Virus record (IMG/VR): IMGVR_UViG_2740892426_000004
Location: 1 to 40,253 of that record
From: a virus
Lineage: Duplodnaviria; Heunggongvirae; Uroviricota; Caudoviricetes
DNA: 40,253 nucleotides
Direction: 5' to 3' (one strand)
Part shown: positions 1,687-40,253 of the stretch, piece after piece
Layout: each line of letters opens with the position of its first letter
Numbering within the stretch: the stretch's first letter is position 1
The notes under the pieces: model-generated
The model's database searches: none
What the model was told of the DNA's origin: nothing
Seen by the model: only the letters and a program-made list of their open reading frames with translations
Made by a program: the position numbers and the translations under genes

Positions 1687-1702
1687 CTGGTGTCCCCTGC
1701 AG
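1687..1702 (-). other. putative attR core: displaced tRNA 3' end (minus strand CTGCAGGGGACACCA-G)
   Basis: Minus-strand sequence is a tRNA T-stem 3' half plus acceptor 3' strand ending ACCA, 73 bp beyond the torI stop; matches my recollection of the argW 3' end. Confidence 0.5.
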
Positions 1703-1775
1703 ACATCTACTTGAGGCAGCAGGGGATTGATTGGAATGGTATTTTTTAGATGTGAAAAATATTTTACCCGCTATT

Positions 1776-1976
1776 TTACCCATCGGCGCGGCTTAAGAGC
1801 TTATTTTTGAACTCACAATGGTCACGATATAACCACCTTGCTCGCCCGTGGATAACTTTGGCTTTTGGCAGGTCGCCGGACTTAATCCGGTCATAGATGA
1901 AGGTTTTACCGAAGCCAGTATCGGCCATGATGAATTTCAAATCAACCAGTGAATCAGGCTGTAGTTCGTGTTGCAT
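1776..1976 (-). CDS. torI: AlpA-family excisionase / recombination directionality factor TorI
   Basis: 66-aa ORF MQHELQPDSLVDLKFIMADTGFGKTFIYDRIKSGDLPKAK...; recalled identity to KplE1 TorI; GGAG RBS 9 nt upstream. Confidence 0.85.
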   Translation of the reverse strand: MQHELQPDSLVDLKFIMADTGFGKTFIYDRIKSGDLPKAKVIHGRARWLYRDHCEFKNKLLSRADG

Positions 1977-1985
1977 GAGTGCTAT

Positions 1986-2002
1986 CTCCGAATAGGGAAT
2001 CG
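1986..2002 (-). other. tRNA T-arm-like segment (minus strand TTTGCAGGTTCGATTCC) immediately upstream of torI
   Basis: Contains canonical T-loop GGTTCGATTCC; together with 1687-1702 would reconstitute a complete tRNA T-arm and acceptor 3' end. Confidence 0.45.
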
Positions 2003-2011
2003 AACCTGCAA

Positions 2012-2032
2012 ATCAGGCAATAAAAAAACCGC
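2012..2032 (-). terminator. rho-independent terminator upstream of torI
   Basis: Minus strand CCGCA-TCAA-TGCGG hairpin followed by TTTTTTT. Confidence 0.55.
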
Positions 2033-2099
2033 ATTGATGCGGCAATGGCAGGTCTGGATATCTTGAGAAATGAACAGGCCTCATCGAGTGTGAGGCGGG

Positions 2100-2444
2100 T
2101 TAGTCCTTGCGTAGCTCGCTGATTCTTCTGTAAGTCTCTGGTGCTTTGTTCCCGTACGTCTTCATTTCAGACTTCAACAGAGCAACGAGGGAATCCCATT
2201 CGTTGAGGATTCCTTTGAATGCCGGAACGCGCTTTGCAACCTTGTTGAATGAATCTCTGATTTCTGGAATCTGCTCAACAAGTGCAACGCATCGCCGAAA
2301 GTCTGCTGCGTCATGGGGAGCGCCGAAGTGATGACCATAGATATTCTTTTTCAGTCCACATGCGATTGAGGCAAGAGTTGCGCTACTGATGCCGACATCG
2401 CCAGTTGATTGCCATTTCAAAACCTTCATAGCCAAATCTGACAT
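2100..2444 (-). CDS. hypothetical prophage protein (114 aa)
   Basis: ORF in track 2100..2471; start moved to MSDLAMKV (ATG 2444) because upstream Met lies inside a terminator hairpin; GGAG RBS 7 nt upstream. Confidence 0.5.
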   Translation of the reverse strand: MSDLAMKVLKWQSTGDVGISSATLASIACGLKKNIYGHHFGAPHDAADFRRCVALVEQIPEIRDSFNKVAKRVPAFKGILNEWDSLVALLKSEMKTYGNKAPETYRRISELRKD

Positions 2445-2457
2445 TTCTTGTCTCCAA

Positions 2458-2478
2458 TAAAAAACCGCCATCAGGCGG
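2458..2478 (-). terminator. rho-independent terminator between two small early-left genes
   Basis: Minus strand CCGCC-TGAT-GGCGG hairpin followed by TTTTTTT, then RBS of next gene. Confidence 0.55.
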
Positions 2479-2638
2479 ATTGGTGTTCTTTCAGTTCTTC
2501 AATTCGAATATTGGTTACGTCTGCATGCGCTATCTGCGCCCATATCATCCAGTGGTTATAGCAGTCGTTGATGTCCTCTGCTTCGATAACCCTGTCGAAT
2601 GGCTCTCCATTCCATTCACCTGTGACTCGGAAGTGCAT
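2471..2638 (-). CDS. hypothetical small protein (55 aa)
   Basis: ORF MHFRVTGEWNGEPFDRVIEAEDINDCYNHWMIWAQIAHADVTNIRIEELKEHQSA with GGAG RBS 7 nt upstream; below 60-aa cutoff of ORF track. Confidence 0.4.
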   Translation of the reverse strand: MHFRVTGEWNGEPFDRVIEAEDINDCYNHWMIWAQIAHADVTNIRIEELKEHQSA

Positions 2639-2645
2639 TTATCAT

Positions 2646-2676
2646 CTCCATAAAACAAAACTCGCCGTAGCGAGTT
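2646..2676 (-). terminator. candidate rho-independent terminator
   Basis: Minus strand AACTCGC-TACG-GCGAGTT hairpin followed by TTGTTTTAT. Confidence 0.4.
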
Positions 2677-2756
2677 CAGATAAAAGAAATCCCCGCGAGT
2701 TCGAGGATTGTTATTCATTGCCGATATTCACCTTTATCGCGAACACCTTTACCGGT

Positions 2757-2999
2757 TTATCTCCTTTGCATAGCACGTAATTTTTTCAGATGGTTCTCCT
2801 GTTCTGTTTCAGCCAGGATCTGGTGATATTCTCTGTGATCAATGTGTTCGAATAAATTATTGAATTTTCTGATGCACACTCTTCCAGGATAGCCATCCAT
2901 CCTCTTGAAGAATACTGAGTGATCAGTACTACGAATGATTTTTACTGGATAGCCAGCGCTATCGGTGTATATCTGACCACGTTGAATCAGAGAGAACAT
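2757..2999 (-). CDS. hypothetical prophage protein (80 aa)
   Basis: ORF with ATG at 2999; no recognisable motif. Confidence 0.5.
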   Translation of the reverse strand: MFSLIQRGQIYTDSAGYPVKIIRSTDHSVFFKRMDGYPGRVCIRKFNNLFEHIDHREYHQILAETEQENHLKKLRAMQRR

Positions 3000-3065
3000 T
3001 CGTTTATCCCCAGATAAAAATATAGCAATACCAATTACATAAAATACTTCAGGCCAAGCATCATT

Positions 3066-3707
3066 TCACCCCTGCGGCGGTTCTGGCAGCGGCATCCAGT
3101 GGGTTACACCGTCAATTGGTTCGTCGTCGTCGTACTCCAATGCGGCCATATAGAACCCGTCACGACGAGAATAAGAAATCCCTGACATTACAATGCCATC
3201 CGAAACAACAATAATGTCACCCGTTTCTTCCGGCATTCGCTCACTACAGCTTATCCAACCATCCGGAATTACCGGAGAGTTGCCGGGTTCTTTAATGTGC
3301 AAGCGAGGCTCACCATCTTTTGGCTCAGGCCACTGGCGCTCCATGTTGATCTTCAATTTATCTTCCATAGCAGCGGTAATTTCAGCATCGCTGATGCCAG
3401 CACGGCGCTGTGCATCCCACAACAGGAACTGCATATCAGCCCACTCGCTGAGATCGTCAGGTTCGGCTGCGGCTTCCAGAGCCTCTTTTGAGAGGTGTTT
3501 CAGTGGACCAATGGGGCCAACGCAGCCAAATGTGGAGTCAGACCATTTGGCATGCTCGTGGCGAATCTGTTCGCGTTCCAGCGATGCCAGAGCAATTCGT
3601 GCCAGTTCTTCCGCTTCTTCTGCTGGCAGTACAACGTTGCTACCAGGTCCGTATGTTTCGCGCCACTGCTTGATTGTCAGCAGTCGCTCTTTGGTAATAG
3701 TTGTCAT
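3066..3707 (-). CDS. DUF550/DUF551-like prophage protein (213 aa)
   Basis: C-terminus ...THWMPLPEPPQG resembles DUF551 signature common in enterobacterial prophage early regions; ATGA overlap with upstream gene. Confidence 0.6.
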   Translation of the reverse strand: MTTITKERLLTIKQWRETYGPGSNVVLPAEEAEELARIALASLEREQIRHEHAKWSDSTFGCVGPIGPLKHLSKEALEAAAEPDDLSEWADMQFLLWDAQRRAGISDAEITAAMEDKLKINMERQWPEPKDGEPRLHIKEPGNSPVIPDGWISCSERMPEETGDIIVVSDGIVMSGISYSRRDGFYMAALEYDDDEPIDGVTHWMPLPEPPQG

Positions 3708-4219
3708 GCCGCGTTTCCTTCTTTCTTATTAACAATTACACCGTCATATATTTCATTAAGGTGCCCTCTCAACTCCATGCGCCTTAATGCAGATAACATG
3801 TAATCGCATTCAACCTGCTTATTTCCAGTAAATGGCTTATCGTCAGGATTACCCCAACAGCAATTGCCCTTTGGCCACCCATGTACTTTCCGTACTCTTC
3901 CGTTAACAACGTGAAGTAATCCCCAGCCAGGTGGTAAATCCTCAATTGAAATAATCCCCGGCTCACTAATAAAGAATCGCCAGTCGCCCATTCCAAGAGA
4001 CGGATTTTTACGAAAACGCTTTTTTCTATCTGCCAACAAGTCAGCACGAGAACACTTCGCCTCTATCAGGCATGATGCTGAATTTCTGAATCCCATAGCA
4101 TCTGGCTGTTCTCCGGTACTGGTTACAGCTATAAAGCGGTCATGAAAACAAACCTTGAACCCGTTGCGCTTAAGGAACTTGTACGCAATCTGACAGAGTT
4201 CGCTGTGTGTTAACGCCAT
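3704..4219 (-). CDS. hypothetical protein with PD-(D/E)xK-like motif (putative nuclease, 171 aa)
   Basis: Motif GEQPD...(23 aa)...LIEAKCS; strong AGGAG RBS; function not established. Confidence 0.5.
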   Translation of the reverse strand: MALTHSELCQIAYKFLKRNGFKVCFHDRFIAVTSTGEQPDAMGFRNSASCLIEAKCSRADLLADRKKRFRKNPSLGMGDWRFFISEPGIISIEDLPPGWGLLHVVNGRVRKVHGWPKGNCCWGNPDDKPFTGNKQVECDYMLSALRRMELRGHLNEIYDGVIVNKKEGNAA

Positions 4220-4220
4220 A

Positions 4221-4949
4221 TCACTCTCCTTTCCCCTGAAGCATGGCGTTGCTCCGCTCTATACCATCCAGCGCGATTCGCAGTGCCTGAATTGTGGTAA
4301 TGCTATCGTTTGGGGCTATTCCATATCGCTCGAATACAGCGATATGACCGCGCATAATCTCAGGCGTAAGCTCTTTGTAAGCATAAGCAAGCGACCCTGA
4401 TGCATTATCCGGCACTACCGGCGATGGCTGTTTAGCTTCTAAATCAGCTATTCTGTCAACCACGGCATCGACAGCATCTGAAAAGCCGAACCAGTTGCTC
4501 CACTCCGGCCTGTTACCGGTTGCTGCAAAGTACATATCATCTAAAGCAGACTCAGCATGGTCACGCTCATTGATGAGTTGCTCTTCGCTTTTCTCCAGTT
4601 CAGCAATACGCTTACTTCCATCCGAGATAACACCTTCGTAATACTCACGCTGCTCGTTGAGTTTTGATTTTGCCGACTCCAGTTGTTTTGTTAGTTCCGC
4701 AATACGGCAAACATCGTTGATACGCGTTTCCTCTAATGCGTTGATCTCATCCAGTAGTGCCAAAGCAACCTTTGGATTAAAGGCAGCAATAAATTCAGCG
4801 TTGTTTTTCAGAACGTGTTGCGCAATGGCCTGACTACTTAGTCGGACCTCATAACCACGTGCGCCACGGTGTGGTTTATATGAGTCCCAGTCTCCCCACG
4901 TTGCTTTCTCTGCCGCCTCACGCAGTGCCTGGTAATTAATTTTGGTCAT
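4221..4949 (-). CDS. hypothetical coiled-coil protein, possibly Ead/Ea22-like (242 aa)
   Basis: Long ORF with central heptad-rich region; position and size typical of Ea22-like early-left proteins. Confidence 0.5.
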   Translation of the reverse strand: MTKINYQALREAAEKATWGDWDSYKPHRGARGYEVRLSSQAIAQHVLKNNAEFIAAFNPKVALALLDEINALEETRINDVCRIAELTKQLESAKSKLNEQREYYEGVISDGSKRIAELEKSEEQLINERDHAESALDDMYFAATGNRPEWSNWFGFSDAVDAVVDRIADLEAKQPSPVVPDNASGSLAYAYKELTPEIMRGHIAVFERYGIAPNDSITTIQALRIALDGIERSNAMLQGKGE

Positions 4950-4950
4950 A

Positions 4951-5250
4951 TCACATCACCCTGAAGCCGTTGCATTTACGTAAGAAATCGCAGATATAGC
5001 CCTTCATTTTTTCATGCCAATCTCGATCATTCCCATTGCACCAACCATCAGGTGGAGTCCAGTTTTCTATCAGAGCAGCCATTTTCTTTGCTTTCGCCGG
5101 AGTAGCTGTTGCGGTATCGCAGTAATGACGAGTGTCAACAAACTTATCCATGCCATCGATATCAAGTACGCAAAACCATGTGTGATTCGGCATTTCAACA
5201 GATGGTATTTGTTGCCCACGTCGACGTTTATCAATAAGACATACAGTCAC
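4951..5250 (-). CDS. hypothetical protein (99 aa, GTG start)
   Basis: GTG start with AAGGAGG RBS 6 nt upstream; GTGA overlap with upstream gene. Confidence 0.5.
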   Translation of the reverse strand: MTVCLIDKRRRGQQIPSVEMPNHTWFCVLDIDGMDKFVDTRHYCDTATATPAKAKKMAALIENWTPPDGWCNGNDRDWHEKMKGYICDFLRKCNGFRVM

Positions 5251-5615
5251 TGGTTGCCTCCTTTACGTAGCTCGGCGGCAAAAGCTACTGCGTGATCATG
5301 ATGTTCAAGTGTGTATGCACACTCCGCAAACATCTCCACCCCCTGCGCCCGTACTTCAGCCAGGAAAGCATCGGTGGCTGGGGTTTCCGTGAAGTTGTCC
5401 TCCCAACCGTAGTACTCCTGACGACAGAAGTTATTAAATTCCTTCTCCGACTGTTTAAGCGCCGCATTCTCCGCTGCCAGCGCCGCGCACTTGGCCTCCG
5501 CTTCAGCAAATTTACGCACCAGATATTCAGCGTTTGTTTCGTTAACCTTTAAATCTCGTGGGATGCATTTACCTTTCAGAAATCCATCCATCTCAATTAG
5601 TGACATTTGTTTCAT
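5247..5615 (-). CDS. hypothetical protein (122 aa)
   Basis: Start placed at [12 protein letters not shown] (ATG 5615) giving ATGA overlap with upstream gene stop and GGAG RBS; track ORF 5247..5633. Confidence 0.5.
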
Positions 5616-5776
5616 TTCTTCCCACTCCGCCACATCGCATTCAGATATTTGTTGTCATTAACAGAACCGAAACTCTTTCTCTTAAGCAATTCCTCTCTCG
5701 ATGGCATTGGCTTTACGCGTTGGCGAATAATCATTTCTGCCGGAAGAATGCCGGGATTGTATGCAAGTCCTCTCAT
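5612..5776 (-). CDS. hypothetical small protein (54 aa, start uncertain)
   Basis: Track ORF 5612..5929 overlaps neighbour; start MRGLAYNPG (ATG 5776) has GAGG RBS 8 nt upstream. Confidence 0.4.
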
Positions 5777-5786
5777 GGTAAATTCC

Positions 5787-6083
5787 TCAGTCATTACTGA
5801 TAGCGCCATAGCGTGAGCGGTAATTACGCAGGCGCGGGTCGATATATTCAGGGAAGTGGGTATATGTGGCTTTGCGGAATGGTCGGATTGATGTCTGGTA
5901 AATTCGCTCGCGTTCTTCTTTCTCTGCAAGCCATACGCAGTGGCGAAATTCCTTTTCCTCTTTTGTTTCCTGCGGTAGCGACATTATCCGGTCGTAGTTT
6001 TTCCTGAATTTATCCAGCACCTCCGATACGGAATTGCCGGAACAGCGGTGCGGGTCATCCGCACCATACAGAGGCGCTGGCAT
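5787..6083 (-). CDS. hypothetical protein (98 aa)
   Basis: ORF with AAGGA RBS 8 nt upstream of ATG 6083. Confidence 0.5.
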
Positions 6084-6106: not shown

Positions 6107-6490
6107 TCAGAATGGGATGGAATCGTCGTATACAGGGGTGTTCTGCTGGTTACTACTTTGCTGCTGCGGGCCATTTCCTGAAGCTGCAAATCCAATCTTT
6201 GCATTCAGTAATTCAAGAGTGATTGATTGACCATTTTGCCCCTGATAAACATCAACCCTGATGTTTTCTCCGGTAATTTCCACAATGCCACCTTCAACAA
6301 GAACACTACGGTAGTAATCCGCTTGCGCTCCCGGCTTGGCAAATACAACGGCGCTGTAGTTTGTCCATTCTTTCTTTTTTGTCTGGCGATCGTAATACTG
6401 AACGCCAGCACGGATGTTGAATCCGATATTTTCCCCGGCCTGAAACTCTCTTGCAGGTTTGTTTAGTCTTACAGTAATCGAATGTGCCAT
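6107..6490 (-). CDS. single-stranded DNA-binding protein-like (127 aa)
   Basis: C-terminal acidic tip ...VYDDSIPF typical of SSB; start ATG overlaps erf stop (TAATG); track ORF extends spuriously into erf. Confidence 0.6.
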   Translation of the reverse strand: MAHSITVRLNKPAREFQAGENIGFNIRAGVQYYDRQTKKKEWTNYSAVVFAKPGAQADYYRSVLVEGGIVEITGENIRVDVYQGQNGQSITLELLNAKIGFAASGNGPQQQSSNQQNTPVYDDSIPF

Positions 6491-7095
6491 TAAGCAGTCG
6501 CTCCTTCTAATTCGTCTCGTCTGATGTTGTAAACGTCCTGCGCTTTGTGCTGCTCCGGTGTGCCTTCGAGCATCTTCCACGCTTTGGCGAAAGCCTGTTT
6601 AAGCTCTTCTACGGTGTTTTTCTGCATTGCTGCGTCAGTGAATGCTTTTAGAACCTGTTCAGGTGTAGGTGATGGTTTTGATTGCTTTGCTGCTGCGTTC
6701 TGTTGATGTTTATGCTCGTCTGTATCTGCATCTTTCGCATCATCAATGCCGAACAAACCATTGAGGCAATACTTGCGTGCATAAGAGCTTGTAGCTCCCG
6801 TAACTTGTGCAGAATCCATTCCTTTCTTGCTTTCTTCCTCTCGTGCTAGTGCGGTTGCCGTATGACTGTTTTCGCCATCGGTAATAGTTGCCGTGGCTTT
6901 CACGTAATACCGATCACCAATCAACACAACTTCATCGCTGATTGATAAAAACAGGCCATTAAGCAGCGGCTTAACGCCTTCAAGAATATCTTCGCAGCTT
7001 CTGTATTTATATTTACCGAATGAGTTGTACTGATTCTTTGGCGCGTTCAGATTCTCCTGAATAGCTGCCAGTCTTGCGTAAAATTCTTTGCTCAT
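6490..7095 (-). CDS. erf: Erf-family single-strand annealing recombination protein
   Basis: MSKEFYARLAAIQENLNAPKNQYNSFGKYKYRSCEDILEGVKPLL... recalled high similarity to P22 Erf; start taken at MSKEF (ATG 7095). Confidence 0.85.
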   Translation of the reverse strand: MSKEFYARLAAIQENLNAPKNQYNSFGKYKYRSCEDILEGVKPLLNGLFLSISDEVVLIGDRYYVKATATITDGENSHTATALAREEESKKGMDSAQVTGATSSYARKYCLNGLFGIDDAKDADTDEHKHQQNAAAKQSKPSPTPEQVLKAFTDAAMQKNTVEELKQAFAKAWKMLEGTPEQHKAQDVYNIRRDELEGATA

Positions 7096-7193
7096 ATGAT
7101 TGTTCTCAGAATGGACATGGCCCAAGGAAATAACGCTGATTTAATACTTCTACTCGGGACAAATTAAGGCATACCCGCATTCCTTCGCGGTCG

Positions 7194-8528: not shown

Positions 8529-8828
8529 TCAAATAAGTGGCTTGCTGCCTAATTTCATTTTCTGGCGACCAACACAAGTCACACCCATTTCACTGCGTGG
8601 CTTGCGGTAGTAAATACGGTTCTGTTTACGCTCGACTTCATCTGCCTTCTTGCAGAGAAGGCTGCCAAGTGATGCTGCTTTGTCTGCTCTGACGCAACCA
8701 GAGAGCTTTAGCGCAATCTTCCGCGCCAGTCGCTGTTCTTTCATTGCCTGTTCACGTTGAGCCTGTCTGCGTGCTCTGCGGCGATTTCTGGCGTTATCGT
8801 CAGCCAGATATGTAATGACTACTGTCAT
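8529..8828 (-). CDS. N-like transcription antitermination protein (P22 gene 24-like)
   Basis: 99-aa ORF with N-terminal arginine-rich motif NARNRRRARRQAQREQ; first gene downstream of PL/nutL; GGAGG RBS. Confidence 0.65.
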   Translation of the reverse strand: MTVVITYLADDNARNRRRARRQAQREQAMKEQRLARKIALKLSGCVRADKAASLGSLLCKKADEVERKQNRIYYRKPRSEMGVTCVGRQKMKLGSKPLI

Positions 8829-8855: not shown

Positions 8856-8953
8856 GTGACGTGACGTGACGTGACGTGACGTGACGTGACGTGACGTGAC
8901 GTGACGTGACGTGACGTGACGTGACGTGACGTGACGTGACGGGGGGAGGGAGG
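8856..8953. repeat. perfect pentanucleotide microsatellite (GTGAC)x17 followed by G-rich tract GGGGGGAGGGAGG
   Basis: 85 bp of uninterrupted GTGAC units (8856-8940) then 13-nt G-tract; lies in PL transcript leader between nutL and the N-like start. Confidence 0.95.
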
Positions 8954-9872: not shown

Positions 9873-9940
9873 AGTTAAGACATCTTAAATAAACTTGACT
9901 TAAGATTCCTTTGATAGATAATTTAAGTGTTCTTTAATTT
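9873..9940. promoter_or_regulatory. OR operators with divergent PRM/PR promoters
   Basis: Operator-like 18-mers AGTTAAGACATCTTAAAT (9873-9890) and ATTTAAGTGTTCTTTAAT (9921-9938); PR -35 TTGACT 9895-9900 and -10 ATAATT 9918-9923. Confidence 0.65.
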
Positions 9941-9952
9941 CGGAGCGAGTCT

Positions 9953-30899: not shown

Positions 30900-30909
30900 G
30901 GGTTAATCA

Positions 30910-32259: not shown

Positions 32260-34427
32260 TGGCTAAAGCATGGAAAGATGTTATCGCTTCTCCACAGTAT
32301 CAGGCGTTAACTGAAAAACAGAAAGCACAGGCTCAAGCGCAATATTTTGATGAGGTTGTTGCCCCTAAGGCTGGTGACAAATGGGCTGAAGCAAGAGATC
32401 AGTTTTATGCAGCATACCCTCCGCCTCAGCAGCAGAAAAAAGAACCATCATTGATGCAACAAGCTGGTGATTGGCTCACAGGTGGTCAAAGTGCAGGGCA
32501 AATTGCTGAACAGGCTGGTCGTGGTCTGGTAAACATACCATTTGACGTATTGCAGGGTGGCGCAAGTCTGATTAATGCAATCAGCCAGGGGCTTGGTGGC
32601 CCCAAGGTTTTGGATGATGTTTATCGCCCTGTCGATCGACCGACAGACCGTTGGGCGCAAGCCGGTGAAACATTTGGTGGGTATCTCCTGCCAATTGGCA
32701 CAGCGGCAAAAGCTGCTGGAGCGACAGCAAAGCTCGCAGGAGACATCGGTTCCGCAGGAAACATGATTGCAGGTTCTCTTGCTGATGCTGCAAATCAGGA
32801 GGGCGACTTTGCACAAAATGCTGCCATTAACGGTGGTATCAATATTGGTGCTCAGGGGATACTTTCTGGGGCTGGAAGGATCTTAACCTCTAAATCACCT
32901 CAAGTTCTTGGTGGCGGGGCAATAAATTCCGCTGCTGATGTTTCGAAAATGGCAAAGTCTGGTACAGGAAGAGAGATTATTGCCAGACAGTCAGCTAATG
33001 TGTCAGACGAAATAGCAAAAGCAGCAGATACTGCTGGAATAGATATCAACGCATTAACTCCTGGCATGAGATCAGGTAGTCGTGGTCTTGCTCAGGCGGA
33101 GGGGATTCTGGCGTCAAAGCCCGGAATTACACAGGATGCACACACCAAAGCATTCAGTGAAATAGAGTCGAAATTTAACTCAGCATTGGATGAGTTTGGG
33201 GCTGAAGCAGGAACTGCATCAGAAAAAAGTGCAGCCATAAAACAAAGGGTTTTGGCAAGTATTGATAAAATGAAAAATTCAGAAAAGGCCGCATGGGATA
33301 GCGTCCGCTCCACGATGCCTGACGCAAAGGCCAGAATGTCAAACCTGAACGCTACAATTCAGGGTGATATTTTGGCTGGCATGCCGCTAACTCCTGAGAT
33401 GAAACAATTCGCATCTGCTTATGCTAAAACTGGTAAAAAAGGAATCACGTTTGATGCCATGAAGGCATGGCGAAGTAAACTTGCTGACGCAGAGCAGAAG
33501 TATATAAGGTCTGGTGAGGCAAATACGGCAAGGCGCATGGCTGAGCTTCGTGATGCAGCAACGGAAGATATGCGCATAATGGCTCAAAATGGCGGTTTTC
33601 TTGATGACTGGCAAAAAGCTAATGATCTGTCAAAGGCAAGATTTACAGCACAAGAACAGGCTGAAGCAGCGTTTGGTAGAGACCTTGCAACTGATCAGTT
33701 GGTAACTGATGGATCTAAGGCGTTACAGGGTTCAGCAAAAAGTGGAACAGGTCAGTTCCATAAAATAATAAGCGCCCTACCTGAGTCGGAACGCGCGCCA
33801 GCAATTGCATCAATATTACAAGATGCAATGTCGCAAGGGGTACGCGGAGGTAAGTCTGAAGAGGCTGGAATTAAGCATATCGCGACTATTCTTACCCCAC
33901 AAAACGTGAAGGCAATTAGTCGATATTCTCCAGAACTTGGCAGGATTACAAGTTCATACGGAGAACTTGCACGAGCAGCAACAAAGCCACTTCGATATGT
34001 TGAACAGACAGGGCGATCTATGCCAGCCATTAGCACTCTTGAGAATGGCCTTCATCCAGTTTTAGAGAGCGCATTGTCTGGCGCTTTTAGAACTACTGGC
34101 ACTATCGCAGGGTTCTCTGGAGGAGGCGTTATTGGAGCAATAGCGGGTGGCGCTGCAGGTGGGGCAATTGATGCAATGGCAAAAGGAGCGATAGCGAAAT
34201 TATCCGCAACTAGAAGCGGTCGTTACGCTATTGAAAAGGCTGTTCAAGAGGCAACAAAGGCAGTTAAGGTTGGGGCAAGTGATGGTGCATTAGCGGCGGC
34301 GGAACGCAGATTTATGGCAAATAAGGCCGCCGTAAAAGCAATACGCGAGGCACTAGGAAACGAAGAGTTCCAGCGTTTAGCAAGAGCTGGAATTGTGGCA
34401 TCGCTAAGCGGAATGGCACAGGAGTAA
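32259..34427 (+). CDS. ejection protein (P22 gp16-like)
   Basis: 722-aa Ala/Gly-rich ORF, last gene of ejection cluster. Confidence 0.7.
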
Positions 34428-34757
34428 TTAGTCATCCATGGATGGATTGAGCTTATCTCGTGTTGATGTGGCAATTTTCCCAACATTTTTCAACCAAGAT
34501 TTTAAGAAGGATATGTCGTCCTTAATATCATGAATATCCTCATTCTTTATACGATCAACCTTATCCTCTAAGCTCTCTATAGAACGCTCAATGCTAGACA
34601 GAGAGATTTTTAAGTCCCCTTGCTCACGTTCCAGTGAGGATTTGAGAGCACAATATTCGTTTTCTAGAATTCCTATTTTTTTTGATAGAGAGTGCATTCG
34701 ATACTCATACACCAAACCAGAAACGACTAATGCAGCCAACAGAAACCATTCAAGCAC
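34428..34757 (-). CDS. hypothetical membrane-anchored coiled-coil protein (110 aa, GTG start)
   Basis: AAGGAGG RBS 5 nt before GTG; N-terminal hydrophobic helix LEWFLLAALVVSGLVYEY then heptad-rich region; abuts gp16-like stop convergently. Confidence 0.5.
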   Translation of the reverse strand: MLEWFLLAALVVSGLVYEYRMHSLSKKIGILENEYCALKSSLEREQGDLKISLSSIERSIESLEDKVDRIKNEDIHDIKDDISFLKSWLKNVGKIATSTRDKLNPSMDD

Positions 34758-34787
34758 ACCAACCTCCTTAGTTTTGAGCAGGATACC

Positions 34788-35153
34788 ATGAAAAAAGTTA
34801 ACATTGGAAACGTACCAAAGATGCTCGTTCCGCTCTTTGAGAGCGGTACAATTGTGTTTTGTAGAGACTTTCCAGAATGGCAACGCCTGCATCAAAAACT
34901 TGGTGTGGACGTGCAGGACTCGGATGCCAACGGAGCGTCTCATACAATGAGCAGCGAGAATGGTGTTTTGCATGTGATAGGCGTGTTCAATGGCAAACTA
35001 TCTACTATTGCCCATGAGTGCGCTCACATGGCATTCGATATCTGCTCAAGGGTCGGTGTTGATGTTGAACCAGGAAGAGCCAACGAGACTTACTGCTACT
35101 TAATGAGCAGGCTTGTTGAGTTCTGCGAGCGACATATCAAAAAGCCGGAGTGA
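34788..35153 (+). CDS. hypothetical small protein with HExxH motif (121 aa), putative minimal zinc metallopeptidase-like
   Basis: Motif STIAHECAHMAFD; AGGA RBS; divergent from 34428-34757 with 30-bp spacer. Confidence 0.5.
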   Translation: MKKVNIGNVPKMLVPLFESGTIVFCRDFPEWQRLHQKLGVDVQDSDANGASHTMSSENGVLHVIGVFNGKLSTIAHECAHMAFDICSRVGVDVEPGRANETYCYLMSRLVEFCERHIKKPE

Positions 35154-35166
35154 CCCGGCTTGATTA

Positions 35167-35346
35167 TTACTTTTTGCTGTCTGGAGTTCGCTTATCTAAT
35201 ACCCAGCCATGACCTGGCTTTGTTGTTGGTGGAAGCCTTTCGTTGTCCTTGACGGTGGCAAAATTGTCTTTCTTACCGCCGCGCGGGCCAACTTCTTGGT
35301 ATATTCCGCCGTTTTTTCCTGTGTTTTCACCTGGTTTTTTCGCCAT
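35167..35346 (-). CDS. YjzC-like small protein (59 aa)
   Basis: MAKKPGENTGKNGGIYQEVGPRGGKKDNFATVKDNERLPPTTKPGHGWVLDKRTPDSKK; GAGG RBS 7 nt upstream. Confidence 0.5.
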   Translation of the reverse strand: MAKKPGENTGKNGGIYQEVGPRGGKKDNFATVKDNERLPPTTKPGHGWVLDKRTPDSKK

Positions 35347-35445
35347 GATATACCTCAACATACACCCGTTATTGGGCGATTAAATATTGATCTCATTTTA
35401 TAAGTAGTCAATATGGCCCAGGTAAATGCAAAAATTAACCTACCG

Positions 35446-35697
35446 TCAGGTGGGTTTTTTGTACAAATCCTTCAGCGTATCAAACACCATCTTCTTAACA
35501 AGGTCGGACTGCTCATCAGCGATGCGTTCCGCATCGTCTCAATAGCCTGAAATTTTGGATGGCTTTGATACAGCATCAGTCACTATCTGAACTAATTCTG
35601 AATTAAGAGAGCGGCCATTGGATTTGGCTCGCTGTTTTAGTTTTTCCTTTAATTCGTAAGATAGCCGCAGATTAAATTGCGGGTCATCTCTTCCCAT
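35446..35697 (-). pseudogene. mnt: mnt (Mnt ribbon-helix-helix repressor) interrupted by in-frame TGA at codon 53
   Basis: MGRDDPQFNLRLSYELKEKLKQRAKSNGRSLNSELVQIVTDAVSKPSKISGY-stop(TGA 35539-35541)-DDAERIADEQSDLVKKMVFDTLKDLYKKPT; both halves match recalled P22 Mnt; uninterrupted part 35539-35697. Confidence 0.7.
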
Positions 35698-35775: not shown

Positions 35776-35974
35776 TGTTGTATGATTGATAATGTTTCAC
35801 TGCAGCCACACTGCGGCGATTCCTTGTATTTGGAGCAAATTAAATGACAGATATTATAAATAGGAATTGTTATTTAATAATGTTTGAAAATAAAAATCAT
35901 GGACGATAGGAATAAAGGTAGTACTTGTTTTTATTTTTGTAAGTGACGCATTAAGCGCATAAATAATATGCCTG

Positions 35975-36003
35975 TTGATCAAGATTCTTGAGTATTGTAA
36001 AAT
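35975..36003 (+). promoter_or_regulatory. candidate sigma70 promoter upstream of tailspike
   Basis: -35 TTGATC, 17-nt spacer, -10 TAAAAT in AT-rich region. Confidence 0.35.
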
Positions 36004-36127
36004 AATCGTTTTGTTCATGTTGCATGGTTTTTAAATGAATAGAAGGTTATTTTTCAAAACAATTGCATCTTTGTCTGCAGTCATTCCGTTTTCTTCAATA
36101 TCTAAATCTTCAAACAGGATGACTAAT

Positions 36128-38713
36128 ATGCCTGATATAACCCCAAATGTTGTGATAGGTATGCCATCGCAACTCTTCACAATGGCTAGCTCTTTTAAAA
36201 CCGTAGCAAATGGAAAAATTTATATCGGTAAGATTGACACAGATCCGGTAAATCCAGAAAACCAGATTCCAGTATATCTGGAACGAGAAGATGGTACTTA
36301 TGTTCAGGTGCCACAGCCAATCGTTATCAATGCTGCTGGATACCCGGTATACAACGGACAGATTTCCAAATTCGTTACCGTGCAAGGCCATTCTATGGCT
36401 GTTTACGATGCATATGGTACGCAGCAGTTCTATTTTCCGAATGTGCTTAAGTACGATCCAGACCAATTAAGACAACAATTAGAAGACCCGGAAGGTGCTA
36501 AAAAATATCATGAATTGCAGATGTCTCGGTGGCGTGATGACGCTGACCCTCGCGGATGGGGAGCAAAAGGTGATGGCATCACCGATGACACATTATCTTT
36601 TCAAGAGTTAGAAAAACAAATCACAGGAAGGATTGTTGATCTAAGGGGTAATACATATATAACAGATCAAGTTTTTGATGGAAATAAGTATATAAATGGC
36701 TATTTTCGCACAGAGAATCGATTACTGCCAGATGCTGATTTTACTGAAAAAAGAATACAAACTATAAAAAAGGGGATGTATACAGGTTTCAGACCTTCTA
36801 CTCCTAATCATGTTAAGTCAGGGTTGCGACTGGCAACAATTAAAAATACTGTCATACAGGGTGCTGTTCTTGATTATTATGACAGTGTTCTTTATTGCTT
36901 GGTAAATGTGAGTGGCAGCGTTAGTTCTGGTGACGAAGTTAATAAAGTTGTTGCTTATAATTGGTTTGGGAATGAAGAGTTAACTCCTCTTTGGGAGACT
37001 AAAGGTAGTAGAGAATTAGGACATCAATGTCTTGGTTTAACCATAGGGCGCGTTGGTTTTCGTAACACAAGAGGCCAGTTACAGATATGGGGGTTAGCTG
37101 GCACAGCTAAAGGAGAGGATCGCGCAAAGTATATCACCAGATTCACCCCTACTGATGGTGGTGAAATTGAACCAGAGTTTTTTCTCATATGGGAAGATGG
37201 TTACGAGAATCAGGTAAATGTTTTATGCACCGACCCTATGAGTCGATGGCTGATTACTACAGCAAAACGTTATGTTGGCCCTGGTGAGAGCCCATCAACA
37301 CCAGATCAAATTCGCTATTATGTAAAAGTATTTGATACCAGCAAATTTATTAACCCGCAGGCGTACAATTACGATTATCGTAATGAAGCAACTTTTGAAT
37401 TTGAAATTGCCGATTTTGTGAGGGATATGCAAACAGTTGCGTGTGACGGTACTGCTATTTATTTTTGTCAGGCTGGATCTGCATATTCTTCAACCAGAAA
37501 ATATTTGCATCAGTACACACTTGATGGTGTTTATCTTGGGGTGCAGCAAATACAGGCAGGTGCAGGAAGAGCCTATGAAATAGCAGATCCAAATGATACC
37601 GGAACGCCAGATGTTAGCAATCTTACATATGAACCAGAAGCAATGTTTTTCCGTATGATTGCAGGTGGGTATGACCTTGTAATGGGGAATACAAATGGCA
37701 TACCAGATGGTGATAGTGGGCGAGAAACTACATTTTACACATTAATGCCACAACAGGTAATGCATGTAAAAACAACATCAAGAAATCAGCCTGGTATTAT
37801 CATTGATTCAACCCATGATATTGTCACTAACTCTGGTTTGTTAAGCCTTGGTAAAATTATGCCTGGTGGTGAAGTCATAGAGCAGGCAAACCTTGATGAC
37901 AAAGGATTCACTGTTTCGAGGGCAACAACACAAGCCGCCCGTTATGATGCAAAGAATAGGTTACGGAATGTAACTTTTCATGTTAGTGAAAAAGGTGATA
38001 CCGGTATTTATGACTTTACCAATGCTCAATGGATATTTAAATCTCCCTTATCAACATCTTCATATTCGTATATCGGTCAGTCAGCGGAGGTTAATGGCTA
38101 TATAAGTGCTAATAAAGATAATACGTCATCATGTGGGACATCATCTAAACGGTGGACGCAAGTATATGCAACTAATGGGGCAATAAATACTTCAGACCAG
38201 ACATTGAAAACAAAGCCACTGACAGTAGAGCAACTTTCAGAAATCATGGAGGTGGATCAGGATGCAATTCTTGACGCATGGGGTGACGTAAATATTATCG
38301 TTTACCAGTGGTTGTCCGATATTAAGGCTAAAGGTTCGGATACTGCTCGTTGGCATTTCGGAGCAATTGCACAGCAGGTAAGAGATGCGTTTCTTGCAAA
38401 GGGGATAGATGGAACAAGATTTGGCTTGCTATGTCATGATAAATGGGATGATGAGTACCAACCTGTAATGGCACAGCGCAAGGTGTCATTTATAGCTAAA
38501 TCCCCTGAAGGAGAAGACATCGTTCGCGAATACTTTGAAGAATACGATACTGGTGACACGGAACTGGTTGTACATGCTGGTGAGCGTTGGGGATTGCGTC
38601 CAGATGAATGTTTGTGGTTGGAGGCTGCATTCCAGCGAAGAAGGTGTGAACGCATTGAGTCTCGTTTAACAGAGCTTGAATTGATAATTAAAAAAGCAAA
38701 AGAGATAGAGTAG
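36128..38713 (+). CDS. tailspike protein: P22-type head-binding domain, GDG-motif central domain, C-terminal intramolecular-chaperone-like domain
   Basis: From [43 protein letters not shown] (recalled P22 gp9 N-terminus); AGGA RBS 9 nt upstream; central [11 protein letters not shown] motif; C-terminal ~170 aa from NTSDQTLK resemble S74-type chaperone domain; track ORF starts in frame at 36035 without RBS. Confidence 0.8.
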
Positions 38714-39001
38714 ATGGATAAAACCCCAATTCATCACGCACTTTGCGCTGTGGTCGCACAGGTACTGGTTGGTCTTTTTACCGGAAACTGGGCTTACGGT
38801 GCGATAGCCGGTTGTACGTTCTTCATTGCTCGTGAACACACCCAGGCAGAATATCGCTGGATTGAAATGTTCGGGCATGGCAAGCGAATGAATATGCCGT
38901 GGTGGGGCGGTTTTGATCCACGTGCATGGGATGTGGCAAGCCTGATGGATTTTTCTTTCCCAATTATCGGATGCTTATTGGTATGGATTCTTGCATCGTA
39001 G
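38714..39001 (+). CDS. hypothetical small membrane protein (95 aa)
   Basis: Two hydrophobic segments; start immediately follows tailspike stop. Confidence 0.45.
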   Translation: MDKTPIHHALCAVVAQVLVGLFTGNWAYGAIAGCTFFIAREHTQAEYRWIEMFGHGKRMNMPWWGGFDPRAWDVASLMDFSFPIIGCLLVWILAS

Positions 39002-39037
39002 CGAACACATAATTACCGATGAAACAAAACTGAGACA

Positions 39038-39071
39038 CACAAAGCTTTGCACTGGATTGCAAGGCTTTGTG
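39038..39071. other. inverted repeat between convergent genes (CACAAAGC ... GCTTTGTG)
   Basis: 8-bp perfect inverted repeat with 18-nt loop containing a nested TTGCA/TGCAA repeat. Confidence 0.35.
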
Positions 39072-39095
39072 CTATCCGATGGTGTTTAAGTTTCC

Positions 39096-40253
39096 TCACT
39101 CCGCCTTTTCATCAAGCCAGTCCGCCCACCACTGCATCATTTCTCTGCGCTTATCGAGATACTGAGCGTGGTTGTAAATCCCGCGTACAGATCCGCCGTT
39201 GGCATGTGCCAGTTGCACTTCAATAGCGTCAGCAGGCCATTCGTGCTCGTTCATAATCGTGCTGAATTCATGCCTGAATCCGTGACCGCTTTCCAGACCT
39301 TCATAGCCGATTTGTTTGATCACAAGCAATACCGCGTTCTCGCAGATTGGCTTCTTCTTATCGTTGCGCCCGGCAAAAACAAACTCTGAGACTGGTTTGG
39401 TGATTGAGCTTAGCGTAGTGAGAAGTTCAACCACCTGGTCTGACATCGGGACCACATGAATTTTGCGTCCCTTCATCACACTGGCGTCGATGGTGATAAT
39501 CCTGTTTTCAAAATCGACGTTCTTCCATAGCATGGAACGAAGCTCTTTTGTTCTTAGGGCTGTGTAGCGTAAAACTTTGGTCGCAATGAGCGATACGATA
39601 CTTCCTGAAAATGTTGCAAGTGCTTTGTTGAATGCCGGGATCTGGTCTGCAGGAAGAAACGGGAAGTTCTTCTTGCGGTATCCCTTCATGGCGTCAGCAA
39701 GGTCAGGTGCCGGGTTATATTTAGCCCTACCAGTGACAATAGCGTAACGGAAAACCTCGCCGCATCTTCTGCGTGCTTTGTTGGCTCGCTCCATTGCGCC
39801 GCGATCTTCAAATCTGCGGATTACTTCCAGCAGTTGCATCGGCTCAATATCCTGAATCTCAAGACCGCCGATGATGGGTAAAATGTCGTCATCAAACATT
39901 TTGGCAAGTTCATTTGCATAGCCTACTGACCAGACTTGCTTCTTGTGCTCGTACCATTCCTTGTAAATGGCGCTAAAGGAATTGTTGTTAGACGAAGCCT
40001 TTTTCGCTTTTACCGGATCGATGCCAACCGAGATGTCTTTCCTCGCGGTCCATGCTTTATCCCTTGCCTCCTGCAAAGTCATAAGCGGATATTTTCCAAC
40101 GGTCAGGATTTTCTCCTTACCGTCAATCTTGTAGCGAAGCTGCCATACCTTTTTCCCTGATACAGGGACATAAAGGTACAGGCCATTACCATCGAGTAGG
40201 CGGTATGGTTTTTCTTTCGGCTTTGCTGCTTCAATCTGCTTAACGGTGAGCAT
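39096..40253 (-). CDS. intS: P4-type tyrosine integrase IntS (KplE1/CPS-53 family)
   Basis: 385-aa ORF MLTVKQIEAAKPKEKPYRLLDGNGLYLYVPVSGKKVWQLRYKIDGKEKILTVGKYPL... recalled near-identity to E. coli IntS; start codon at the last three bases of the window. Confidence 0.85.
   Translation of the reverse strand: MLTVKQIEAAKPKEKPYRLLDGNGLYLYVPVSGKKVWQLRYKIDGKEKILTVGKYPLMTLQEARDKAWTARKDISVGIDPVKAKKASSNNNSFSAIYKEWYEHKKQVWSVGYANELAKMFDDDILPIIGGLEIQDIEPMQLLEVIRRFEDRGAMERANKARRRCGEVFRYAIVTGRAKYNPAPDLADAMKGYRKKNFPFLPADQIPAFNKALATFSGSIVSLIATKVLRYTALRTKELRSMLWKNVDFENRIITIDASVMKGRKIHVVPMSDQVVELLTTLSSITKPVSEFVFAGRNDKKKPICENAVLLVIKQIGYEGLESGHGFRHEFSTIMNEHEWPADAIEVQLAHANGGSVRGIYNHAQYLDKRREMMQWWADWLDEKAE

Follow-up and report, generated by a model that had tools for sequence, protein, structure and literature searches.

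Gene content and integrity of the element

The window (the whole 40,253-nucleotide stretch of DNA that was analysed) starts with a host flank (positions 1-1712) showing 100% identity with many E. coli genomes annotated with cscB or an oligosaccharide MFS transporter (csc locus), and carries 38.6 kb of prophage, from the att core to the window end (Table 1). CUS-3, Kapi1, HK620, Sf6, P22 and lambda were used as functional phages to gauge gene length, and per-gene tblastn found 24 of 24 core lambdoid and P22-type genes full-length and without frameshifts. Lengths were the same as in the functional phages for the early, regulatory and lysis genes (int, torI, c2, cro, N, P, Q, S, R and Rz), as well as for the morphogenesis genes (TerL, portal, scaffold, coat, gp4, gp10, gp26, gp14, gp7, gp20 and gp16). 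The original prediction of an apparently complete genome of about 38.6 kb is borne out by these lengths, and alignment with the reference phages revealed no overlooked frameshift in the essential genes. Taken as a whole, that prediction was partly confirmed as an observation and partly supported as an interpretation.

Table 1. Features of the window with their positions, strands and supporting matches.
Feature	Position	Strand	Evidence
cscB, sucrose/oligosaccharide MFS permease (host flank, outside prophage)	1..1248	+	Pfam LacY_symp E=3e-192
att core, attR-type junction, duplicates argW 3' end	1689..1703	.	TGGTGTCCCCTGCAG
torI, recombination directionality factor (RDF, excisionase)	1776..1976	-	65/66 aa identical to K-12 TorI
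Early-left accessory (ea) block	2100..5929	-	Pfam and PHROGs matches
ea: PHROG 1229 protein	within 2100..5929	-	
ea: lambda orf homologue	2471-2638	-	
ea: DUF4222	2757-2999	-	
ea: dATP/dGTP pyrophosphohydrolase-DUF551	3066-3707	-	
ea: 171-aa ORF	3704-4219	-	
ea: Ead/Ea22-like	4221-4949	-	
ea: DUF7739	4951-5250	-	
ea: 128-aa ORF; DUF2737 protein	after DUF7739, within 2100..5929	-	
abc2, anti-RecBCD	5787..6083	-	91% to P22 Abc2, 98% to CUS-3 hkaJ
Small SSB-like protein, 127 aa	6107..6490	-	PHROG 44 "single strand DNA binding protein" E=3e-27
erf, ssDNA-annealing recombinase	6490..7125	-	Pfam ERF E=2e-44; 98% CUS-3 Erf, 75% P22 Erf
kil	7352-7504	-	100% to CUS-3/Sf6/Kapi1 kil
cIII-like	7489-7674	-	100% to Kapi1 CIII; PHROG 550
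ea10	7699-8067	-	97% to lambda Ea10; Pfam DUF2528
ral	8250-8450	-	98% to lambda Ral
N-like antiterminator, CUS-3/HK620 type	8529..8828	-	96% to CUS-3 N; PHROG 271 E=1e-35
Perfect (GTGAC)x17.2 microsatellite, N leader	8856..8941	.	TRF, 100% matches, score 172
immC	9222..10138		
c2 repressor	9222-9872	-	93% to P22 C2, 99% to Kapi1
OR operators	9873-9952	.	nearly identical to P22 OR1-3
cro	9953-10138	+	95% to P22 Cro
cII/c1-like activator ORF, probable start ~10247	10160..10525	+	91% HK620 cII, 82% P22 c1
O-like initiator	10708-11529	+	Pfam Phage_rep_O
ori-like iterons, then AT-rich repeat (inside O gene)	11064-11168		
DnaB-type helicase	11526-12902	+	99% to CUS-3
lambda-type ninB, C, D, E, F	12958-14771	+	92-99% to lambda NinB-F
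PHROG 1258 ORF, nin region	14764-15033	+	
hkbD	15033-15323	+	96-100% to CUS-3/HK620 (range for hkbD, rusA, ninH)
HNH_3 endonuclease	15320-15844	+	HNH_3 E=1e-16
rusA	15845-16207	+	as hkbD
ninH	16204-16392	+	as hkbD
Q antiterminator, phage 21/Sf6 type	16389..16907	+	97% to Sf6 gp59 and CUS-3 Q; Pfam Phage_antitermQ
tRNA-Asn(GTT) and tRNA-Thr(TGT)	16971..17126	+	ARAGORN, Rfam
Lysis cassette: S holin, R endolysin, Rz, embedded Rz1 (~18348-18533)	17369..18586	+	
KilA-N, between lysis and packaging	18788-19309	+	Pfam; region 98.7% to HK544
Sf6 gp66-like, between lysis and packaging	19598-19996	+	Pfam
DUF6953, between lysis and packaging	20060-20299	-	Pfam
TerS, ES2-type	20553-21080	+	Pfam Terminase_2
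TerL, Sf6-type	21077-22492	+	100% to CUS-3/Kapi1/Sf6
Head module, CUS-3/Kapi1 type	22494..27178	+	
Portal	within 22494..27178	+	97-98% to CUS-3/Kapi1
Scaffold	24783-25676	+	88-89% to CUS-3/Kapi1
Coat	25695-26948	+	95-99% to CUS-3/Kapi1
Small ORF, head module	26954-27178	+	
Tail machine/ejection: gp4, gp10, gp26 needle, gp14, gp7, gp20, gp16	27159..34427	+	94-100% to CUS-3 and/or HK620
Degenerate sieA/immI region	34428..35697	.	98.8% to HK620 33285-34360; 92% to P22 13828-14770
sieA/immI: hkcB-like	34428-34757	-	
sieA/immI: hkcC	34788-35153	+	
sieA/immI: orf59a-like	35167-35361	-	
mnt pseudogene	35449-35697	-	in-frame TGA, codon 53 of 83; ORF 35539-35697
Relic P22-type tailspike start, then 266-bp AT-rich insert	35845..36127	+	ATGACAGATATT; blastn boundaries
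Tailspike, 861 aa	36128..38713	+	Pfam Head_binding E=5e-61, Peptidase_S74 E=4e-10
95-aa ORF	38714..39001	+	PHROG 1443 E=6e-55, family without assigned function
intS, tyrosine integrase	39096..40253	-	383/385 identical to K-12 IntS; ATG = window end

Mosaic composition of the modules

The ea genes were of mixed Kapi1, CUS-3, Sf6, HK620 and lambda origins (per-gene tblastn), and PADLOC returned no matches. Of the Erf-SSB module proposed originally, Erf was upheld by its Pfam family and the partner by PHROG 44, by its C-terminal tip DDSIPF and by a 92% match to a CUS-3 hypothetical protein, whereas this partner matched neither Pfam SSB nor any other Pfam family and showed no similarity to Sf6 SSB. 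The lambda type attributed to ral, cIII and kil held for ral, but the cIII product yielded no BLASTP alignment with lambda CIII, and Kil matched lambda Kil at 57% over only 30 aa. The N-like protein had no match to P22 gp24.

The immunity region was P22-type as expected, since the C2 and Cro matches were accompanied by an OR about 97/100 nt identical to that of P22, and by an OL at 88%. The O-like initiator matched CUS-3 at 95% in its C-terminal half and P22 gp18 at 50% over the whole protein. The predicted lambda-type nin genes were recovered as ninB to ninF; an HNH endonuclease gene is inserted within the nin region. Q, taken beforehand for a P22-type gene, proved to be of the phage 21 type, with no similarity to P22 gp23 or to lambda Q, and is followed by a tRNA-Asn/Thr pair that is likewise annotated downstream of Q in Sf6 and Kapi1. 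In the lysis cassette, described as lambda-type, S and R fitted this description (99% to lambda), whereas Rz and Rz1 were P22/Sf6-type (92-94%), with identities to lambda of 60% and 41%, respectively.

The morphogenesis genes had been called P22/Sf6-like, which agrees with the P22-type tail and ejection genes and the Sf6-type TerL, but not with the CUS-3/Kapi1-type portal, scaffold and coat or the ES2-type TerS. Gene lengths in the head module equalled those of CUS-3, and the coat protein was only 29% identical to that of P22 and had no match in Sf6. TerS was 77-78% identical to the TerS of Cronobacter ES2 and Erwinia Midgardsormr38, except for the last ~30 aa, which were Sf6-type (73% to Sf6 gp1); none of the characterised P22-like phages used as references had a TerS of this type, and the TerS-TerL junction was also present in 11 complete E. 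coli genomes. The tail and ejection genes had the same lengths as their CUS-3 and/or HK620 orthologues. Downstream of them, mnt is disrupted, as noticed originally; arc, ant and sieA were sought and all were absent, and because arc and ant are missing, mnt is a harmless relic and its disruption is moot. HK620 retains mnt/ant remnants only, and in Sf6 the interval from gene 16 to the tailspike has no immI gene annotated. The region of the relic tailspike start and insert was the same in two other E. coli prophages.

Six reference phages and the K-12 KplE1 region together covered 79% of the element at ≥90% DNA identity, and matches to CUS-3, Kapi1, phiv205-1 and HK620, at 94-96% identity, extended over 46-71% of the two halves used as queries. 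Among complete E. coli genomes and phage records, none gave a contiguous match exceeding 80% of either queried end, so that the element has no directly characterised twin. The strongly mosaic character predicted for it was evident from per-gene matches spread over several phages, and, judging by these comparisons, modules that are each known from phages at 90-100% identity are combined in a new way in this genome. An assembly chimera of at least two co-resident lambdoid prophages, which would make the mosaicism and the long microsatellite artefactual, is extremely improbable. Several lambdoid prophages with common segments are frequent in E. coli genomes, and the lack of a contiguous match would fit such an origin, as would a perfect 17-copy repeat unprecedented for its context; however, the canonical P22-like gene order is unbroken, with a single copy per function and a plausible genome size, the module junctions fall at known mosaic boundaries (e.g. 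the terS end and the tailspike head-binding domain), and several of them were found independently in other genomes. Positions 1689-40253 very probably represent the genome of a P22-like (genus Lederbergvirus) temperate podovirus, integrated by an IntS-type tyrosine integrase in the argW 3' end of an E. coli strain with a csc sucrose locus. The prophage appears to be complete, of the CUS-3/Kapi1/HK620 type and ordinary for P22-like phages.

The argW recombination module and KplE1

The att core is the reverse-complemented argW 3' end and is the same as K-12 attR/pawZ; alignments of the Kapi1 phage record start at position 1688, and the attR arm was identical to K-12 at 84/87 positions. The torI and intS genes were those known from KplE1, as predicted, TorI being also 98% identical to Sf6 gp18, HK620 HkaC and the Kapi1 excisionase. 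Their bracketing of the genome was seen on the torI side only, because the window extends no further than the int ATG, leaving attL and argW beyond it; in strain H1827/12 a tRNA-Arg gene is located 162 bp past the same int gene, and roughly 175 bp of the int-proximal att arm plus the core would continue past the window end. The placement of the genes for integrase and RDF at opposite ends was also correct and is not new here, given that a KplE1-type recombination module in which int is uncoupled from RDF, the two lying at opposite ends of the prophage, has been published as common to HK620, Sf6, CUS-3 and numerous argW prophages (PMC2951348, PMC3509656). Kapi1 has been published as a temperate phage integrated at argW. 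In the phage genome, attP presumably separates int from the RDF gene, so that integration would leave intS beside argW and carry torI to the opposite end.

Alignment with the KplE1 region was limited to int, torI and the att arm, which make up 4.3% of the element, and beyond the recombination module the sole trace of KplE1 was a 34-aa yfdS stretch resembling one ea-region ORF. A relationship with KplE1 therefore holds for these parts, whereas the rest of KplE1 (the yfdG-I gtr genes and the tfaS/yfdK tail-fibre genes) had no counterpart in the element. The 97-99% identity of TorI, IntS and the att arm, together with the yfdS stretch, could suggest that the element is an ancestral, undecayed KplE1 and KplE1 its deletion derivative. 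Homology would then extend across the whole element, but the aligned portion is small, the unmatched KplE1 genes are not P22-like tail genes, and the recombination module is known to move among many argW phages, making this descent very improbable. The data point to an origin of the KplE1 non-recombination genes in a different phage type.

Predicted life cycle and inducibility

From the gene content, the integrity of the genes, the module origins and the att junction, all observed directly, we infer a life cycle of the standard lambdoid/P22 kind, each functional step of which is put forward as a prediction, inducibility included. The prophage would be kept silent by the P22-immunity C2 repressor bound to OL/OR, until RecA-stimulated autocleavage of C2 derepressed PL and PR; antitermination by the N-type and then the phage-21-type Q protein would turn on the early and then the late genes, and TorI and IntS would excise the prophage. 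Early functions would comprise recombination by Erf, the SSB-like protein and Abc2, and replication by O and the DnaB-type helicase. TerS/TerL would package DNA by a headful mechanism into a CUS-3-type capsid, to which a P22-type tail machine with the 861-aa tailspike would be added for recognition of a surface polysaccharide, and cells would be lysed by lambda-type S/R with Rz/Rz1.

The N leader contains an unusual, non-coding 86-bp (GTGAC)17 tract. About 500 related E. coli loci had 1-2 GTGAC copies, the 17 copies being unique among them, and scans of three large collections did not yield the 17-copy repeat either. The tract was predicted to fold into a hairpin of -48.5 kcal/mol immediately upstream of the N ribosome-binding site, and might impair N translation and leave an element with intact ORFs functionally defective, persisting as a cryptic, non-inducible prophage. 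A chimeric TerS or a rebuilt tailspike 5' end that does not work, or damage to attL, which lies outside the window, could have the same effect; the 266-bp insert lies between the ancestral tailspike start and the gene body, and strain H1827/12 carries the same right end within an obviously decayed prophage. Nevertheless, the core ORFs are all full-length, the repeat is non-coding, the TerS-TerL junction is kept in other genomes, and the tailspike still has a good start signal, AGGA-N8-ATG, in a cassette 99% conserved in many prophages; a cryptic state is accordingly considered unlikely, and inducibility of the prophage is plausible.

The tailspike is a portable cassette combining a P22-type head-binding domain, a putative central receptor-binding domain and a C-terminal Peptidase_S74 intramolecular chaperone. 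Its PDB matches were confined to the two ends, and the central domain has no characterised relative. In L008 and L009 the tailspike is given by PGAP as a 2586-nt gene, and the 95-aa ORF, annotated as hypothetical downstream of the same tailspike in both, travels with it.

Integrity and boundaries of the prophage

Judging from its gene content, the element that runs from position 1689 to the end of the window is very probably a full-length, apparently intact mosaic prophage of the P22-like group (Lederbergvirus), for which inducibility is plausible. Twenty-four core genes (int, torI, c2, cro, cII, N, O, P, Q, S, R, Rz, Rz1, those for TerL, portal, scaffold and coat, and gp4, gp10, gp26, gp14, gp7, gp20 and gp16) were compared with their annotated orthologues in functional phages; all 24 were exactly as long as their counterparts, and no frameshift or truncation was found among them. 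The lambdoid early region was present in order, from PL-N...cIII-kil-recombination through repressor/cro, cII, O/P, nin and Q to lysis. Modules were assigned by per-gene tblastn together with Pfam and PHROGs, which revealed mixed phage origins gene by gene and, with the full-length core genes, bore out the apparently complete and strongly mosaic genome of the original prediction. That prediction was largely right in what it had observed in the sequence and partly supported in its interpretation.

The best phage records were CUS-3, Kapi1, phiv205-1, vB_EcoP-611R6 and HK620. CUS-3 alone aligned with 67% of the element at 93% identity, and CUS-3, Kapi1, HK620, Sf6, P22 and lambda, together with the region of KplE1 (the defective prophage of E. 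coli K-12 at argW), covered 79% of it at a nucleotide identity of at least 90%. Neither the 50,697 phage records nor the 5,426 complete genomes of E. coli that were searched contained an identical prophage; the best contiguous coverage by a single phage record reached 71% of a queried stretch, and none of the 5,426 complete genomes held at least 80% of the left-end 4 kb. The element is a new mosaic combination within a very well-known kind.

The host is a csc-positive E. coli, since positions 1-1712 were 100% identical with many complete E. coli chromosomes. The left boundary had been placed at 1687, correct to within two bases, because the att core starts at 1689 and the alignments with the Kapi1 phage record start at 1688. 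This core matches the attR/pawZ core of K-12 KplE1 (its argW-side form is CCTGCAGGGGACACCA), and the 87 bp from the core to the end of torI share 84/87 positions with the K-12 attR arm. The window closes on the ATG of the integrase gene, and the int-proximal att arm, attL and argW lie beyond it; of the predicted bracketing by torI and intS, the left torI/att junction was therefore seen, but the right junction falls outside the window. In E. coli H1827/12, which has the same right end, a tRNA-Arg gene lies 162 bp beyond int, so the complete prophage would measure about 38.7 kb, within the 38.3-41.7 kb range of HK620, Sf6, Kapi1, CUS-3 and P22.

Coordinates and main attributes of the features located in the window
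Feature	Position	Strand	Remarks
CscB sucrose permease gene (host)	1-1248		Pfam LacY_symp, E=3e-192
att core TGGTGTCCCCTGCAG	1689-1703		15 nt; reverse complement of the argW tRNA 3' end
torI	1776-1976	minus	product 65/66 identical to K-12 TorI
(GTGAC)17.2 microsatellite	8856-8941		perfect repeat (TRF) in the 5' leader of the N antiterminator gene
HNH_3 endonuclease gene	15320-15844		free-standing; exactly between hkbD and rusA
DUF6953 gene	20060-20299	opposite to TerS	just upstream of TerS
TerS gene	20553-21080		Terminase_2; 77-78% amino acid identity to TerS of Cronobacter ES2 and Erwinia Midgardsormr38
Relic P22-type tailspike start ATGACAGATATT	35845-36127		about 6 codons, then a 266-bp AT-rich insert
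Tailspike gene	ATG at 36128; cassette with ORF to 39001		861 aa; PGAP start; AGGA eight bases upstream
int (intS)	39096-40253		product 383/385 identical to K-12 IntS

Kinship with KplE1 and with the argW phages

The element had been described as a full-length relative of KplE1, which holds for int, torI and att but not for the other gene content. The K-12 KplE1 region aligned by blastn with only 4.3% of the element, the sole further trace was a 34-aa stretch of yfdS, and the other KplE1 genes, namely yfdG-I (gtr-like), the tail-fibre genes tfaS/yfdK and the rest of yfdK-T, had no counterpart; the kinship is thus confined to the recombination module. The two elements share nearly identical IntS and TorI (see table), the att core, the attR arm, the argW site and the placement of int and the excisionase (RDF) gene at opposite ends, whereas KplE1 is a 10-kb remnant without immunity, replication, lysis or P22-like structural genes. 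The predicted separation of the int and RDF genes was confirmed by their positions and by the annotation order of HK620 (int, attP core, hkaC, the last equivalent to TorI), from which it follows that int and torI land at opposite prophage ends. This arrangement is already published: the KplE1-type recombination module is common to HK620, Sf6, CUS-3 and many argW prophages, and all of these elements uncouple the transcription of integrase from that of the RDF (Panis et al.; PMC2951348, PMC3509656). Kapi1 is likewise a described temperate phage that integrates at argW, and the link through IntS/TorI between KplE1 and full-length phages is known in the literature since 2007-2012.

In the per-gene tblastn, both TorI and IntS were 98-99% identical in Sf6, HK620 and Kapi1, and int only in CUS-3. 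The CUS-3 record (CP000711, 40002-40207) holds no torI/RDF gene, its attR core standing directly after the homologue of the window ORF 2471-2638, yet the literature counts CUS-3 among the phages with the KplE1 module. Just upstream of torI, the intergenic stretch 1999-2094 gave a 32-aa tblastn match that is 53% identical to P22 Xis at its N-terminal end and may be left over from a past exchange of int/xis modules. In H1827/12 (locus L008, 2022-8777) the same tailspike-ORF-intS right end was found at argW in a decayed prophage with a truncated gp16 joined to an unrelated integrase fragment, an example of how a phage of this type can decay into a KplE1-like remnant.

CUS-3, a prophage of E. coli K1 RS218 at argW, was the best overall match and has the same integrase, P22-type repressor/cro, helicase, phage-21-type Q, TerL, portal-scaffold-coat type, most tail/ejection genes, Erf, SSB-like protein and abc2; its tailspike likewise ends in an endosialidase-type chaperone. 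What sets CUS-3 apart is its K1 endosialidase tailspike, phase-variable neuO, ant and a pair of mnt genes, all absent from the element, which in turn carries lambda-type ninB-F, an ES2-type TerS, a different N-terminal half of O and a tRNA pair. A reading of the element as a K1-specific CUS-3 variant was rejected because the endosialidase core and neuO are absent: the tailspike lacks the CUS-3 endosialidase catalytic domain, it has no neuO region, a 95-aa ORF being all that lies between tailspike and int, and TRF found no heptanucleotide repeat. Kapi1 (MT813197, from argW of E. coli MP1) shares the att/torI end, the integrase, the tRNA-Asn/Thr pair, repressor (99%), coat (99%), portal (98%) and TerL (100%), but differs in its RecT recombinase, Q, needle knob, gp20, gp16, tailspike and arc/ant immI region.

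HK620 and Sf6, both P22-like and argW-integrating, have the same recombination-module layout (int, attP, hkaC/gp18, the equivalent of TorI). The tail/ejection genes of HK620 are 94-99% identical to those of the element and it carries the same mnt/ant remnants; in Sf6, Q, the tRNAs, the lysis genes and gp66 are 97-100% identical. Both differ from the element in the immunity region (of its own type in HK620, 434-like in Sf6), head genes (Sf6-type), recombination genes, tailspikes and conversion genes (wzy-like in HK620, oac in Sf6). P22 shares the genome architecture, C2 (93%), Cro (95%), a nearly identical OR, gp10, gp14, gp7, Rz/Rz1 and abc2 (91-93%), Erf (75%) and the mnt/orf59a region (92% nucleotide identity), but differs in int/xis, attachment site, N (gp24), Q (gp23), TerS/TerL, the portal/scaffold/coat type and the tailspike body, and its gtrABC, sieA, sieB, arc and ant are absent from the element. 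None of the conversion genes sought (sieA, sieB, gtrABC, oac, wzy-like, neuO) was found in the element.

Module assignments and predicted life cycle

The predicted P22-type immunity region was confirmed, with C2 at 93% and Cro at 95% identity, about 3 of 100 positions of OR differing from P22, and OL at 88%. The cII gene is HK620-type (91%), and N is CUS-3/HK620-type and did not match P22 gp24. The early-left accessory genes are of mixed Kapi1, CUS-3, Sf6, HK620 and lambda origins. Of the ral/cIII/kil set, predicted to be lambda-type, this stood for ral, which like ea10 is a lambda allele (97-98%), but not for cIII, identical to the Kapi1 allele and giving no BLASTP alignment with lambda CIII, nor for kil, identical to the alleles of Sf6, CUS-3 and Kapi1 and only 57% identical to lambda Kil over 30 aa. 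The Erf half of the supposed Erf-SSB module is sound (Pfam ERF; 98% to CUS-3, 75% to P22). Abc2 is 91% identical to P22 Abc2, and the 127-aa protein encoded between it and Erf matched PHROG 44 (SSB) and ends in DDSIPF, but had no Pfam SSB match and no similarity to the SSB of Sf6.

O is chimeric, its C-terminal half being 95% identical to CUS-3 and the whole protein 50% identical to P22 gp18, and the DnaB-type helicase is 99% identical to CUS-3. The middle of the O gene contains an AT-rich repeat and a pair of adjoining 22-nt palindromic iterons; only these are reported, because a degenerate palindrome pattern, used to look for more ori iterons, performed no better than chance. Lambda-type nin genes were found as predicted (ninB, C, D, E and F, 92-99% to lambda), together with hkbD, rusA and ninH alleles of HK620/CUS-3. 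Since hkbD and rusA abut directly in CUS-3, HK620 and Kapi1, the HNH_3 gene between them resembles an insertion of a free-standing homing endonuclease; an HNH gene that lies upstream of the tailspike gene in Kapi1 shares 38% identity with it. The assignment of Q to the P22 type was wrong, because Q shows no similarity to P22 gp23 or lambda Q (no tblastn match; BLASTP E=4.8) and matches the Q of Sf6 and CUS-3, which is of the phage-21 type, at 97% identity. Downstream comes a tRNA-Asn/Thr pair, as in Sf6 and Kapi1, beyond which Rfam at the gathering threshold gave nothing. The lysis genes S and R are lambda-type as proposed (99%), but Rz/Rz1 are of the P22/Sf6 type (92-94%, against 60% for Rz and 41% for Rz1 in lambda). 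PADLOC defence models gave nothing meaningful for the accessory ORFs, apart from one KilA-N match (E=1e-5) that had no significant stretch.

For the morphogenesis genes, predicted to be P22/Sf6-like, the tail/ejection set is indeed P22-type, but the head is of the CUS-3/Kapi1 type and TerS of the ES2 type. TerS resembles Sf6 gp1 only over its last 30 aa or so, TerL is 100% identical to CUS-3, Kapi1 and Sf6, and the junction between the two origins, at about 21005, was also present in 11 complete E. coli genomes. The portal, scaffold and coat proteins belong to the CUS-3/Kapi1 type; the coat is 95-99% identical to these phages and 29% to P22, with no match to Sf6. Downstream of the terminase-portal-scaffold-coat genes, gp4, gp10, gp26, gp14, gp7, gp20 and gp16 (27159-34427) are syntenic and full-length, 94-100% identical to CUS-3 and/or HK620 and 92-100% to their P22, HK620 or CUS-3 orthologues.

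Homology suggests that the usual P22/lambdoid life cycle is the most likely one for the element. Repression by C2 at the P22-type operators would keep the prophage silent, and SOS-induced cleavage of the repressor would set off the lytic programme, in which antitermination by N and then by the phage-21-type Q would turn on the early and then the late genes. The genome would leave argW through the action of IntS and TorI and be replicated by O together with the DnaB-type helicase, and TerS/TerL would package it by the headful into a CUS-3-type capsid; the P22-type tail and a putative polysaccharide-degrading tailspike would serve adsorption, and the S/R/Rz/Rz1 cassette would lyse the cell. The result adds another P22-like mosaic prophage to a site, argW, that is already heavily used, here in a csc-positive E. 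coli, and has little import beyond annotation, where it corrects the assignments of Q, cIII, Rz, the head-module type and TerS. If inducible, the prophage would provide a natural full-length context for IntS/TorI regulation, a role already filled by Kapi1, HK620 and Sf6, and could supply an uncharacterised putative tailspike depolymerase.

The N-leader repeat, the mnt relic and the tailspike cassette

The perfect GTGAC repeat in the N leader could have grown by genuine slippage or could be an error of assembly. HK620 has one copy, two copies were seen in both of the closest complete E. coli genomes inspected, and all 40 matches listed have lengths equivalent to 1-2 copies; at least three copies in the same context were encountered zero times in scans of IMG/VR, GTDB representative genomes and JGI metagenomes. 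As RNA, the (GTGAC)17 tract is predicted to form a long, imperfectly paired hairpin (-48.5 kcal/mol, z = -4.6). A far-reaching and very unlikely reading takes the tract for a true contingency repeat that is prone to slippage; a long quasi-double-stranded (GUCAC)n hairpin in the mRNA would then lie beside the N ribosome-binding site, and changes in length would tune N translation or RNase III processing, altering the lysis-lysogeny decision or induction frequency, which would vary between clonal descendants of this prophage.

The sole clear pseudogene is mnt, in which P22 Mnt aligns over 83/83 residues with 72% identity and codon 53 is TGA (CGC in P22). The original prediction had singled it out as a disrupted essential gene; the in-frame stop is there, but the gene is not essential here, with no arc or ant of the P22, CUS-3 or Kapi1 type in the element and the region 98.8% identical to a HK620 segment annotated by its authors as mnt/ant remnants. 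HK620 and Sf6 are recorded as complete phage genomes, the former with only these remnants and the latter with no immI gene annotated from gene 16 to the tailspike. The mnt gene is, on this comparison, a harmless relic.

Conserved late-operon sequence precedes the relic tailspike codons at 35845. The insert that follows them was near-identical (1-2 substitutions) in two other E. coli prophages, and its lack of variation among the genomes compared left no coding signal to be read from it. An ATG at 36035, upstream and in frame, was rejected as the likely start of the tailspike gene, since the Shine-Dalgarno spacing and PGAP, which starts the identical gene at the equivalent position in two other genomes, favour 36128; the twin-arginine-like peptide (21 letters) that it would add is probably not translated.

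The N-terminus of the tailspike is a head-binding domain of the P22 gp9 type (Pfam Head_binding, E=5e-61; PDB matches to the Sf6, P22 and HK620 tailspikes, E=1e-42 to 1e-58), its central region of about 520 aa had no relative in PDB or among the phage records, and its C-terminus is a Peptidase_S74 intramolecular chaperone, as in endosialidases; the match to CUS-3 covers only the N-terminal 22% of its length. The 95-aa ORF (PHROG 1443) travels with the tailspike gene. The cassette that holds both (35797-39156) recurred with 98.8-99.3% identity in P22-like prophages of other E. coli strains that occupy other chromosomal sites, such as the one adjoining dacD in strain AST19, and behaves as a putative portable host-range module.
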